A DNA stretch of 64,000 nucleotides from NCBI RefSeq assembly GCF_029227855.1, contig NZ_CP074357.1; one strand, 5' to 3'. How positions within the stretch are numbered: position 1 is the stretch's first letter; each line of letters opens with the position of its first letter. The DNA comes from Escherichia coli (GTDB lineage: Bacteria; Pseudomonadota; Gammaproteobacteria; Enterobacterales; Enterobacteriaceae). Position numbers: made by a program. This document shows positions 3,001 through 6,000 of the stretch, in pieces.

Positions 3001-6000
3001 TAAACCGGTGTATTTCTGCCGTTATGCTACATAAGTTTGCTGTCGTGCCGTTAGGGCCCAGGCTATTCTGGCCAGCTTGTTTGCCAGAGCACAAGTGACG
3101 ACAAAGTTGCTTTTCCGGCACAGTAAATCCCTGACCCAATCGGCCAATTTGCCAGACTGGTGTTCCAGTTTTTGTATGAATACCCTGGCACATTGAACCA
3201 ACAAAGTTCGGATCTTTTTATTACCTCGCTTACTAATTCCCAGCAATGTCGTCCTACCTCCCGTGCTGTACTGCCGAGGTACAAGCCCTGTTGCCGCCGC
3301 AAAGTCACGGCTGCTGGCGTACTGCTTCCCGTCGCCAATCTCAGTTGAAATAGTACTCGCTGTCAGTGTTCCGACGCAGGGAATGCTCAGCAAGCGCTGT
3401 CCAACCTCATCTTCGTCCAACTTTCGTTTCAACTGGGATTCCAAATCTTTAATCTGCTCAACAAGATAGTGATAATGCTGTTGTAATTTCAGCAATAACT
3501 GGCTGAGGTAAAGAGGCAAACTACTGTCCTCAAGAATGGTACTCAGTCGGCTAATAACGGCAGCTCCTCGGGGAACGCTAATGCCAAATTCCAGCAGAAA
3601 AGCATGCATTTGATTGGTTGTTTTTACCTTATCCTGAACCAGGGATTCACGGACACGATGCAGAGCCCGCATTGCCTGCTGAGATTCCGTTCTGGGCTGC
3701 ACAAAACGCATAGACGGACGCGATGCAGCTTCACAAATAGCTTCGGCGTCGACAAAGTCGTTTTTATTGCTTTTAACGAACGGGCGGACAAATTGTGGTG
3801 ATATCAGCTTTGGGGAATGCCCCAACTCTTCCAACTTGCGTGCCATAAAGTGAGAACCGCCACAGGCTTCCATTGCGATGGTTGTAGCGGGGCATGTCGC
3901 CAAAAATTCGATCAACTTTGGCCGGGTAAATTTTTTACGGTAAACAGCCTTCCCGCGACGATCCTGGCAATGAATATGGAAAGAGTTTTTACCCAGATCG
4001 ATACCAATGAGCGCAATGTTTTCCATGATAGTTCTCCGAATGAAAGCCTGTCCTCAGCATAGTACCGGGAAGGAGGGAGTGACCATCTCATTAAATATCC
4101 CACGCTAAGACTGTTTGCTGTACAAATTGATGTCGACAGCGCGTAATGACCGTAGTCACAGGAACAGCTAATGGTATTGAAAATTGACCCGTAACTGAAA
4201 CAGCATCGACCCAGCAGCGATGATGTGAACCTTGAAGAACTTTGGGTGCAGCCTCTTATAGCAGCAGTTTTTGCTGTTGTTCCCTTAATAAGATATGCCC
4301 TGTAAATACCCTCATGGCTTCATTTATAATACTATTATTAGCTTACTACGACTCAGTCTAGAAACAGCATCATCTCCACTGGGGCTAAAACACCACTTAC
4401 CGCATGCTTTCATATAACCAGATTTCAGCCCCCTTGAAAGGGACTAATCGCTGTATACCAGCGAGTCTAAAACACCTTGTCCACTATGGACCCCTCCCTC
4501 TGTCGATTCAGCTGATTTGCTACGAATTAGATATCCAGCAAAACTGTGCTCAGCACTGGAGGGATTGTTATCTGTCTGCACGGAGAACATTCCAAGTTCG
4601 CTTATCAAATCATTCACCTTATGCAACTCCCCTTTACGCACAATCAAGGTGGGCATAGCTCGGGGCTGAGGGTGTAAACGGCGCATCAGCGACCAGGACT
4701 GATATTGTTGTGGAGTGAGTTCCGTCAGTTTTGTCAGGATATCCGCACCAAACAGACAATGCCCCCCGCCTTCACCCTGATTTTTGAGAACCCAGGTTTC
4801 CGAAGGAGACTCTTTTGCAAGGTTGATACTATCCGGGCTGATGGGTAACATCTCACCCAGTATCGTTTTTGCTATTTTAGCTTCCTGCAGTGTTAATCCA
4901 AATGCGACAAACTCGTCGTAACCCAATTGCGAGAGCAGCATTTGTACTCGCTTGCTGGTCGCCAGTTGCTGGCCAACTGTGGCGTTCACTGCAACCCGGT
5001 GCTGCTCAATGAATACTCGGGTCGCCATCAGCGCCTGACAACACTCCTGCTCATCGATATTGAATGCTTCATAATCAGAATACTGATATCCGGCACGTAA
5101 GTAGACGGTATCAAGTGGGCCTACACCCTCGAGAATGAGCCTGTTGTCGGCGCCTGTACTCAATTGATTATGCAGTTCACGAAAAGTCCTGCGATGCGTT
5201 TCGATTCCTTTTTGCTGGAGGGCGAGCTCAAGCAAGTGTTGATCAAACACATTATTTTCATTCTCCTGCACAATCATCAGGAACCTGGCAGGGCCGGGGT
5301 CTCCGAACTCCTGCTTAATTCTGCAAGTTGCCTGACAAATCGCTGCTGATAACCCTTCGATCGCTTGATTGTCGACAAGCGCCCCTGTTGCCTGATTCGA
5401 TAAATCAGAAAAGACAGCGGGATATTGCCGTTGTAGATAGTGATGCAGATCATGTATCCGCTGACCAAACGGCCCCATTCCTGCAGCTATACCATTGAAC
5501 TCTATAAGCCTGAACCCATCACGATTATCATCCATAAAGTCGCTACGCATAATGAGTAATGGTAATCGAGGAGCATGCCTTGATGATGAATGGATTTGTT
5601 GATGCATGTTCAGGAGGGCTGAAAAGAAGGCATTCCCGGCCTTGATGGGATAAATCGCAGAGTACAAAAAATCATGATCCTCAGAAACTGAATAGATTAA
5701 TTTGCTGAGTATTCCTGTTGCATTCTTTAAGTACTGATAGGATTTACGGCTGATAGGTGTTGGTGTCAGGGTAAACGGGGTATGCACTGCGGAATACGAC
5801 GATTCCTTGAAAGCAACACCATGAGTTAAGGCCCATTCGACGGCATCATCCTTGAGCTTCTGAACATCAAGAGTACTCATTTTACGTCCCCTGATTTTAC
5901 CTGGCATATCATTGGTGGTTGTTACTTGGCTATCAGCCTATAAAATTTGATTGATTACTTCAATAGTTCACGTATAGGAAATTGAAAAACCAGTCGATAC

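Follow-up and report, generated by a model that had tools for sequence, protein, structure and literature searches.

Glutathione synthetases (GS) of the eukaryotic type are represented by the solved structures of the human (GSS, 2HGS), potato (StGSS1, 5OES) and yeast (1M0W) enzymes (EC 6.3.2.3), and of the homoglutathione synthetase of soybean (3KAJ/3KAK/3KAL), in which Leu-Pro at the A-loop residue pair sets a precedent for a changed third substrate. E. coli-type GshB, a RimK-like ATP-grasp enzyme, is related to these only distantly, within the same ATP-grasp superfamily, and E. coli and Salmonella already possess both GshA and GshB. The ars/arr islands of Shewanella sp. ANA-3, Shewanella sp. 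O23S (pSheB) and Aeromonas sp. O23A each include a gene annotated as 'Glutathione synthetase' (PMC6429310), which adjoins arsR, permease, ArsC, ACR3/ArsB and arrAB genes; the literature that we searched contains descriptive mentions only, with neither biochemical nor genetic work on these bacterial proteins. A plasmid-borne 'gshB' has been reported as part of an IncN1 remnant, deltarepA-iterons-gshB-deltaIS1294 (PMC6052338, PMC6288184), carried by pHNFP460-1, pHN6DS2 and pABWA45_3.

The gene analysed here, in a 64-kb stretch of E. coli DNA (the window), belongs to the same DNA as this IncN1 remnant. Plasmid pABWA45_3 matches the window over positions 2819-6384, and a version without the IS110-family insertion matches it at 100% across 4093-6384; the window differs from the remnant in that IS26 has removed deltarepA and the iterons and in the truncation of the IS110-family element. 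The IS26-bounded GS module is 100% identical in IncN (57-kb), IncN/IncX1 (38.9-kb) and IncF-type F33:A-:B- plasmids, and copies of the module with 99% identity or more are found in about 304 PLSDB plasmids and in 173 of the 5,426 complete genomes of E. coli, with 194 of its 199 genomic places being plasmids. The gene is a widespread passenger of IS26 mosaics that has been catalogued and annotated previously. The plasmid copies are essentially identical and are thus uninformative with respect to selection, while the truncated copies of the module (52-66% of its length) that persist in several plasmids indicate that the gene is dispensable. The name 'gshB' comes from annotation only, the product having no family-level homology to E. 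coli GshB, and its use in plasmid papers is misleading, since what is encoded is a GS of eukaryotic type, from a clade with conserved lid residues of its own.

The gene lies on the minus strand within an open frame (4444..5907, 487 aa) that holds the three motifs to which an earlier note on this DNA had drawn attention, FLMIVQENENNVFDQ...RRTF, VYLRAGYQYSDY and KNQGEGGGHCLFG. While both frame and motifs are present as described, the start that was proposed, at 5907, is less likely than the ATG at 5880, which is preceded at 6 nt by the Shine-Dalgarno sequence GGGGA and agrees with the N-termini of all homologues and with RefSeq WP_000105383.1; the ATG at 5907 is without a Shine-Dalgarno sequence. 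We therefore take the gene as 4444..5880, encoding 478 aa. The Pfam and solved-structure matches of the product are far above chance: PF03917 is matched with E=9.7e-61 over residues 15-484 of the 487 and PF03199 with E=4.3e-19, and the protein aligns end to end with the solved eukaryotic GS (best E=2.5e-41), the potato, human, soybean and yeast sequences giving E=2.5e-41 to 1e-36. An AF2 model (pLDDT 88.2, pTM 0.89) superimposes in Foldseek on the closed GS/hGS structures 5OES, 2HGS, 3KAL and 1M0W with TM 0.83-0.86, so that the full-length fold is the same in the human, potato and yeast enzymes and in the soybean homoglutathione synthetase (TM 0.86). Prokaryotic GS domains gave no Pfam match in the protein, and E. 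coli GshB structures are absent among the Foldseek matches with E<=0.001. Pfam, sequence and Foldseek evidence thus agree on a eukaryotic-type GS homologue rather than a GshB/RimK-type one, as the earlier note had proposed, and the protein would be expected to catalyse the same overall reaction as GshB. Three other ATP-grasp candidates, glutathionylspermidine synthetase, YjfC/YgiC and Cp1B, were ruled out as much poorer fold matches at Foldseek TM<=0.61, the fold class that ranks next after GS reaching TM<=0.6.

Sequence identity to the eukaryotic enzymes is only 24-27%. Using the pocket positions listed for StGSS1 (PMC5919673, S4 Table; potato numbering), with conservation scored in 124 family members, we find all six residues of the gamma-glutamyl pocket (Q222, E225, N227, Q231, R279 and Y282) to be identical and invariant across 124/124 members. 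The Arg that contacts Cys (Arg137) is likewise invariant, and the Cys-contacting S158 and S160 are replaced by Ala and Gly, small and uncharged residues of a kind deemed compatible with backbone contacts to Cys (PMC5919673). In the ATP/Mg pocket 11 of 15 positions are identical, including E153, N155, K318, K372, E434, R459 and K461, the changes being N381 to C, Y383 to F (shared with the active nematode GSS1), Q409 to R and I411 to L; the GGG triad of the G-loop is kept. The Mg/ATP ligands, the catalytic Arg, the gamma-glutamyl pocket and the GGG triad are shared with eukaryotic GS. The loss of key ATP- or gamma-glutamylcysteine-binding residues, which would have spoken against a glutathione synthetase, is not seen: alignment to eukaryotic GS shows the E/N/K/K/E/R/K set of the ATP-Mg site and the catalytic Arg all conserved, alongside the complete Glu pocket. 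A pseudogene was rejected on sequence grounds, because both the frame and the catalytic residues are intact.

The lid loops are where the protein departs from the characterised enzymes, and the departures are strictly conserved. The Ala-Ala pair of the A-loop, which is present in canonical GS sequences and contributes to glycine specificity, is His-Ser here and in all 124 members, the same pair that is Leu-Pro in the soybean enzyme. The Asn-Asn of the G-loop, whose second position belongs to the ADP pocket, is His-Cys here and in 119 of the 124.

The nearest relatives indicate where the gene came from. It falls in a gammaproteobacterial clade whose closest members, from Salmonella, Aeromonas, Yersinia and Shewanella, all lie in arsenic-resistance islands; the nearest non-plasmid relatives are in a Salmonella chromosomal island (80% identity) and in Aeromonas and Yersinia (77-78%), and the Shewanella and Aeromonas island genes named above belong to the same clade (64-78%). 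These islands are the natural contexts of the clade. In the neighbour-joining clade that contains the plasmid gene, 12/12 leaves have ars-type neighbours, and no ter gene was present near any homologue examined. At 14 loci a PF03773 permease gene is adjacent to the GS gene, on the same strand at 11 and mostly with arsR nearby, and a small thioredoxin-like neighbour is named 'MTH895/ArsE family' in NCBIfam. More distant relatives form gshA-ABC exporter-GS operons: an equivalog-level gshA (582 bits, cutoff 393) is found at 10 loci of the relatives, at eight of them upstream on the same strand and followed by the ABC exporter genes and GS, and at two on the opposite strand. This proximity of gshA argues that gamma-glutamylcysteine is the substrate. 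The clade is bacterial and accessory, encoded in metalloid islands or gshA-ABC operons, unlike eukaryotic GS, and it is well separated, scoring at least 326 bits compared with at most 187 bits for all other GS-like proteins.

The plasmid copy is without all such neighbours. Searches of the 64-kb window by tblastn (E<=1e-3) with gshA, arsR, both permease types, ArsB, ACR3, ArsC, ArsA/D, thioredoxin-like, SigZ and ABC queries gave no gshA, ars or permease homologue, and likewise no thioredoxin-like, SigZ or ABC partner, in keeping with the view that this is a lone gene between IS elements with no gshA in the window. Since ars neighbours accompany 12/12 relatives and none is found here, the gene is of ars-island descent and stands outside any ars system in its present place; its pedigree is an arsenic-resistance island and not the IncN backbone.

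The flanks had been described as an IS110-family element on one side and a truncated IS26 on the other, which is right, although the region is more of a mosaic than this implies. On the left, a complete IS26 (1999..2818, minus strand; transposase ORF 2051-2773), with 820-bp matches of 99.6-100% to IS26 in comparison plasmids including pD90-3 and pABWA45_3, has its terminal repeat TTTGCAACAGTGCC at 2806-2819, and it abuts and truncates an IS4321/IS5075-like IS110-family element (2819..4092, minus strand; transposase 3022-4026, 334 aa). The first 52 bp of the left end of that element have been lost to IS26, and its right boundary at 4092 is fixed by the uninterrupted site in pD90-3; the region is 97.6% identical to the IS5075 copy in pABWA45_3, and PGAP labels an identical copy of the transposase IS4321-family. 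The target of the insertion was a Tn21-family 38-bp terminal inverted repeat, which reads GGGGTCCGCTTGGAAAACGGAAAATATCCCACGCTAAG where it is uninterrupted in pD90-3, with 31/38 identities to what we take to be the Tn21 IRtnp sequence; the right-hand 16 nt (AATATCCCACGCTAAG) remain at 4093..4108 on the plus strand. The first 60 nt from 4093 are 85% identical to the termini of genes for Tn3-family transposases, and tblastn identifies the last 15 codons of a tnpA relic (RSLRAVDINLYSKQS) at 4108..4152 on the minus strand, 11 of whose 15 residues are identical to the extreme C-terminus of the Tn3-family transposase of pEC-IMPQ, the similarity ending at 4152. What has been called a 'TIR-like' IS5075/IS4321 target beside the GS gene is the true end of a Tn21-family transposon, complete with a stub of tnpA. 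Between this relic and the gene are 291 bp of unassigned sequence (4153..4443), with a short hairpin CCCTTTCAAGGG immediately after the stop codon, that are identical in all plasmid copies and bear no resemblance to the sequence that follows the Salmonella, Yersinia and Aeromonas homologues.

On its 5' side the gene retains a native intergenic region (5881..5967, minus strand), which carries the Shine-Dalgarno sequence and is homologous to the DNA between GS and the divergently oriented arsR in the Salmonella island, the alignment extending until some 20 bp short of the arsR start codon; arsR itself is gone. The junction is formed by GAAC (5968..5971, minus strand), the IS1294 target tetranucleotide (target preference given in PMC6052338), and is followed by a 114-bp IS91-family end fragment, the oriIS end of IS1294 (5972..6085), which agrees at 112/112 positions with the terminus of a complete IS91-family element on pJD053-NDM-99K; the same 114 bp have been described (PMC6052338, PMC6288184). 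A 299-bp 5' fragment of IS26 (6086..6384, plus strand) completes the array, its transposase frame breaking after ...PWHMDE into a Klebsiella-derived ramA/romA fragment. Three of these relics, the Tn21-family inverted repeat, the Tn3-family tnpA end and the IS1294 end, had escaped the earlier note. The arrangement in the window is not that of an IS26-bounded pseudo-compound transposon, as the complete IS26 on the left faces the opposite way from the fragment on the right; in pSTM6-275, pD90-3 and pABWA45_3 the module lies between two complete, directly oriented copies of IS26.

A link to tellurite had also been suggested, on which reading the gene would have been recruited beside the ter operon to restore thiols depleted by tellurite. 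The two do share one plasmid, and tellurite toxicity involves thiol oxidation, but the gene is not 'next to' tellurite resistance: terZABCDEF (25,242-31,461) is part of the IncHI2 backbone, 19.4 kb distant from a GS gene that sits in an IS26 resistance mosaic, with copies of IS26, aph(3')-Ia, hipBA and some 20 further genes in between, which speaks against a functional tie. Furthermore, the identical module occurs on IncN/IncX1, IncN and F33:A-:B- plasmids, ter genes are absent from the 18-kb stretches examined in IncN and IncX1/IncN plasmids that carry it, and no homologue neighbourhood contains them. We regard recruitment for this purpose as very improbable; the link is unsupported and the co-occurrence coincidental. 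Rather than a 'mobilised thiol-metabolism gene', it is more aptly described as a stranded piece of DNA that hitchhikes within a mosaic of IS26. Another reading is that of a silent relic, whose frame would be intact only through recent capture and which would be unexpressed or inactive in Enterobacteriaceae, contributing nothing there. Its native regulator and partners are lost with only 87 bp of upstream DNA kept, in which there is no convincing match to a sigma-70 promoter, and the uniformity of the copies (all at least 99% identical) and the survival of truncated ones would fit such a relic. These 87 bp, however, span nearly the whole of the Salmonella arsR-GS intergenic region, which is the expected site of the promoter, and the frame, the Shine-Dalgarno sequence and all catalytic residues are intact, so that we think a silent relic improbable. 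As to an operator, the Salmonella upstream region shows no more than a weak inverted repeat of 9 nt, and the plasmid keeps just one of its arms; with the repressor also lost, constitutive transcription would be favoured.

A further alternative is that the ligase has acquired a new function, using a gamma-glutamyl-cysteine-like donor with an acceptor other than glycine, or having lid loops that respond to metalloids or to redox state, and that its product is not glutathione but some other thiol peptide devoted to the handling of arsenic. The His-Ser and His-Cys replacements are consistent with this, as Leu-Pro at the same A-loop pair contributes to the acceptor switch of the soybean homoglutathione synthetase (PMC5919673), as are the large gap in score between the clade and other GS-like proteins and the score of 236.4 bits against TIGR01986, which is under the cutoff of 329.8 for this NCBIfam equivalog. 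The host genera have a canonical GshB, such that a second identical activity seems redundant. On the other hand, the Glu pocket is canonical at six of six positions where neofunctionalised nematode effectors keep only 0-2, and in a nematode clade-2 enzyme the preference for glycine persists although the Ala-Ala pair is missing (PMC5919673). Moreover, gshA is close by at the 10 loci noted above, the eight gshA-ABC-ABC-GS operons resembling a plain two-step glutathione pathway with an exporter, and we consider neofunctionalisation unlikely. A related and speculative suggestion, to which we attach a low probability, is that the clade with the His-Cys/His-Ser lid is a dedicated metalloid-defence enzyme and not a redundant housekeeping GS, making and exporting a thiol peptide, or As(III) conjugated to a thiol, together with the co-operonic PF03773 permease or the ABC pair; it might use an acceptor besides glycine, or its invariant His/Cys lid might sense As(III) or redox state.

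The explanation that we favour, and think likely, is that this is an intact eukaryotic-type GS of ars-island origin that has been stranded by IS elements and is a hitchhiker unrelated to the ter operon. The product is probably a working glutathione synthetase, an ATP-grasp ligase that would make glutathione from gamma-glutamylcysteine, glycine and ATP by the usual acyl-phosphate mechanism. The gammaproteobacterial clade would be accessory to metalloid handling: in the islands, with GS divergent from arsR or co-directional with the PF03773 permease gene and near ACR3/ArsB, ArsC and ArsDA, the enzyme may supply thiol for As(III) conjugation and for glutaredoxin-coupled arsenate reduction. On the plasmid nothing is left but the gene and roughly 90 bp of native upstream DNA, which IS1294, the Tn3-family end, the IS4321-like element and IS26 have cut off from regulator and partners, and the module, at first located beside the IncN iterons, now moves among plasmids in the company of IS26. 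At most it would provide E. coli or Salmonella with a redundant second GS. The gene may be expressed from the plasmid and would probably bring no benefit there; it is most probably a hitchhiker.

In summary, the finding has little consequence for the window itself, in which the gene is an ordinary, annotated hitchhiker. Were the clade to be a dedicated metalloid-defence enzyme, the ArsR-less plasmid copy would supply metalloid defence constitutively in multidrug-resistant Enterobacteriaceae from livestock. The wider significance lies with the relatives, whose recurrent arsR/permease-GS and gshA-ABC-ABC-GS gene orders mark out a thiol branch, as yet uncharacterised, in the way bacteria handle metalloids.

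The minus-strand ORF 4444..5907 (487 aa), reported in the earlier note as a eukaryotic-type glutathione synthetase (GS) homologue, is present in the window with the motifs quoted for it, and its database matches indicate that it is not a chance reading frame. Its product matches PF03917 (eukaryotic GS, ATP-binding domain; Pfam, E=9.7e-61, residues 15-484) and PF03199 (E=4.3e-19), and aligns end to end with the potato, human, soybean and yeast glutathione synthetases (phmmer against PDB sequences, E=2.5e-41 to 5e-36). ATG 5880 is more likely to be the start than ATG 5907, because a GGGGA Shine-Dalgarno sequence lies 6 nt upstream, the N-termini of all homologues agree, and the RefSeq record (WP_000105383.1, 478 aa) begins there; ATG 5907 lacks a ribosome-binding site.

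The fold of the GS protein is that of a eukaryotic-type GS and is intact, and its acyl-donor and nucleotide sites are canonical. Built on 19 family members, an AlphaFold model is confident (pLDDT 88, pTM 0.89) and overlays structures of eukaryotic GS and homoglutathione synthetase in the closed form (TM scores of 0.83-0.86); E. coli-type GshB is absent among its structure matches. The glutathionylspermidine synthetase, YjfC/YgiC and Cp1B folds form the next class, at a TM of only 0.61 or less. Pocket residues were taken from the list for potato StGSS1 (PMC5919673, S4 Table) and mapped through the PDB-sequence alignment and a MAFFT alignment of 252 sequences. The ATP- and gamma-Glu-Cys-binding residues, loss of which would have spoken against the proposed assignment, are kept: the glutamate of gamma-Glu-Cys is held by six side chains (Q, E, N, Q, R, Y), every one identical to its potato counterpart and unchanged across 124/124 family members, the cysteine-contacting Arg is invariant in the family, and the ADP pocket is identical at 11 of 15 positions with every charged residue retained. 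The two backbone-contact serines of the cysteine pocket are Ala and Gly. In all 124 members of the bacterial clade His-Ser replaces the Ala-Ala pair, a contributor to glycine specificity; in 119 of them His-Cys replaces the Asn-Asn next to the GGG triad; and the protein scores 236 bits, below the NCBI GS equivalog cutoff of 329.8. A nematode enzyme that lacks the Ala-Ala pair still prefers glycine (PMC5919673), and thus His-Ser alone does not exclude glutathione synthesis.

Sequence scores place the GS protein in a distinct gammaproteobacterial clade: in the HMMER family search its members reach 326 bits or more (at least 40% identity), and all other proteins drop directly to 187 bits or less. 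When one genome per species was scanned, relatives turned up in 206 stretches, which come exclusively from marine or aquatic Gammaproteobacteria and a few enterics; 89 loci were annotated with reference proteins of verified identity (NCBIfam). The closest relatives of the plasmid GS all lie within arsenic islands. In Salmonella (80% identity) the divergent neighbours, at -106 bp, are arsR and an LMW-phosphatase-type arsC, and arsRDAB and a molybdopterin oxidoreductase gene lie close by; Aeromonas (77-78%) has the order ACR3-arsC-(sigZ)-GS-permease-Trx-like, Yersinia (77%) GS-permease-Trx-like, and Shewanella (63-67%, including the much-studied strain ANA-3) arsR / permease-GS adjoining arsB/arsC or arrAB/arsDAB. 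The plasmid gene nests within this group in a neighbour-joining tree, where 12 of 12 clade leaves have ars-type neighbours. The Salmonella chromosomal locus, which holds the closest chromosomal homologue, also carries a CBASS operon directly downstream (11595-16522 of that locus; SAVED effector, SMODS cyclase, Cap2 E1/E2-like and JAB Cap3), and its ars island is part of a larger mobile island.

A more remote subclade (48-54% identity; Photobacterium, Aliivibrio, Enterovibrio, Vibrio and Endozoicomonas-like) has another gene arrangement. Equivalog-level gshA is found in 10 loci, eight of which (L055, L056, L063, L067, L070, L073, L081 and L086) have gshA-ABC-ABC-GS on one strand, spanning about -3.7 kb to 0 from the GS gene; in L057 and L075 the ABC-GS part is present and gshA lies on the other strand. 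ABC exporter genes adjoin GS in 14 loci, frequently with a SigZ-type sigma factor. This conserved string in Vibrionaceae and relatives looks like a self-contained glutathione synthesis-and-export operon, and it gives the strongest indirect indication at hand that gamma-Glu-Cys is a substrate of the family.

The bracketing of the GS gene (4444-5880) by insertion sequences is real, yet has more layers than the earlier note described. A complete IS26 (1999-2818) has removed the first 52 bp of an IS4321/IS5075-like IS110-family element (2819-4092), followed by the last 16 nt of a Tn21-family 38-bp terminal inverted repeat (4093-4108), the last 15 codons of a Tn3-family tnpA (4108-4152) and a 291-bp stretch (4153-4443). 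Beyond the gene lie 87 bp of native upstream DNA (5881-5967), GAAC (5968-5971), a 114-bp IS91-family (IS1294) end (5972-6085) and a 299-bp IS26 fragment (6086-6384) running into a Klebsiella-derived ramA/romA piece. That piece (6385-7675), a chromosome fragment joined to the truncated IS26, holds a DUF1158 gene, an intact minus-strand gene for the efflux activator RamA (6914-7255/7279) and a 5'-truncated romA. In plasmids without the IS110-family insertion the repeat is uninterrupted (GGGGTCCGCTTGGAAAACGGAAAATATCCCACGCTAAG) and follows directly on the 37-bp iterons belonging to a truncated IncN repA; on one of these, pD90-3, the transposon-end relic lies directly against the iterons (7873-7960). 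The insertion in some plasmids, such as pABWA45_3, has been described (PMC6052338; PMC6288184), its site as 'similar to the 38-bp TIR of Tn21' (PMC6052338). Because the tnpA codons adjoin the repeat (window 4093-4152; pD90-3 7873-7960), this target is a genuine Tn21-family transposon-end relic rather than an off-target site of IS5075/IS4321.

The segment corresponds to the IncN1 remnant 'deltarepA-iterons-gshB-delta IS1294 (114 bp)' (PMC6052338; PMC6288184), in which the gshB label is by annotation only, and for the ars/arr islands of the relatives a 'glutathione synthetase' has been drawn in figures (PMC6429310). The gene, the mosaic and its spread are already known from RefSeq and the plasmid literature. 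Three points are new here: the gene descends from an ars island, being neither IncN backbone nor a gshB homologue; the 'TIR-like' target of IS5075 is a true end of a Tn21-family transposon with a remnant of tnpA; and the lid residues His-Cys/His-Ser are invariant in the clade, which shows two recurrent types of operon. About 304 PLSDB plasmids, from Escherichia, Salmonella, Klebsiella, Enterobacter and Citrobacter, carry the 1.9-kb module with an identity of at least 99%, and it is present in 173 of 5,426 complete E. coli genomes, where 194 of 199 places are on plasmids; truncated copies exist as well. Window 1-49,843 is 100% identical to the E. coli IncHI2A/IncN plasmid NZ_CP132982.1. An arsR and PF03773-permease pair, absent from the window, lies just across IS26/deltarepA from the module on some plasmids, for example at 4142-5607 of pD90-3. 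Its products are 85-89% (ArsR) and 68-70% (permease) identical to those of Aeromonas ars islands holding the GS homologue, which hints at a single ars-island donor; the same genes are mentioned on another plasmid (PMC11781320). Source fields of carriers in the plasmid and E. coli match lists are mostly poultry, pigs, ducks, geese and retail meat. This bias may simply be the epidemiology of IS26-rich plasmids, and a tie to arsenical feed additives is conceivable given the ars-island descent of the gene.

The proposed placement of the GS gene next to tellurite resistance does not hold: terZABCDEF (25,242-31,461, with other ter-associated genes beyond) is 19.4 kb away, and IS26 copies, aph(3')-Ia, a hipBA pair and many genes of the backbone stand in between. 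The ter genes are IncHI2 backbone, and the GS module was imported from an IncN plasmid, identical copies occurring in IncN, IncN/IncX1 and F33:A-:B- plasmids. With this distance, the separate origins and no ter genes in the homologue neighbourhoods, the suggested functional link is best regarded as coincidental. A ter-associated biosynthetic cluster (31785-38500) adjoins terZ and is followed by terW; its annotations include ATP-grasp, phosphoribosyltransferase, StiP-like cysteine protease and HpcH aldolase, and it is this ATP-grasp protein, not the GS homologue, that is the ligase physically linked to ter. Elsewhere in the window, the minus strand at 9512-11413 encodes a 633-aa AAA-ATPase with an acidic poly-Asp run, matching OLD, AriA (PARIS) and GajA (Gabija) defence-nuclease profiles (best E=7e-19) in low-GC DNA (33-39% GC). 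The adjoining 169-aa ORF (11519-12028) has no PADLOC match; the ATPase may be an anti-phage system, either by itself or as a pair with this ORF.

The GS protein most likely ligates glycine to gamma-Glu-Cys to give glutathione, and in its native setting would raise the thiol supply for As(III) complexation and glutaredoxin-coupled ArsC, possibly also feeding the adjoining permease. A dedicated thiol-peptide synthetase working with a permease, perhaps substrate-shifted or metalloid-sensing, seems unlikely. On the plasmid, all has been lost except the GS gene and its 87-bp leader. This leader can be aligned with the region between arsR and GS in Salmonella until about 20 bp short of the arsR start codon, so that the native promoter may have survived the loss of the repressor; no strong promoter or operator was recognised in these 87 bp. 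E. coli and Salmonella already possess GshA and GshB, with control normally exerted at the GshA step, and one additional GS on its own should therefore make little difference. Most simply read, the GS gene is a hitchhiker, retained because it lies between IS26 copies.
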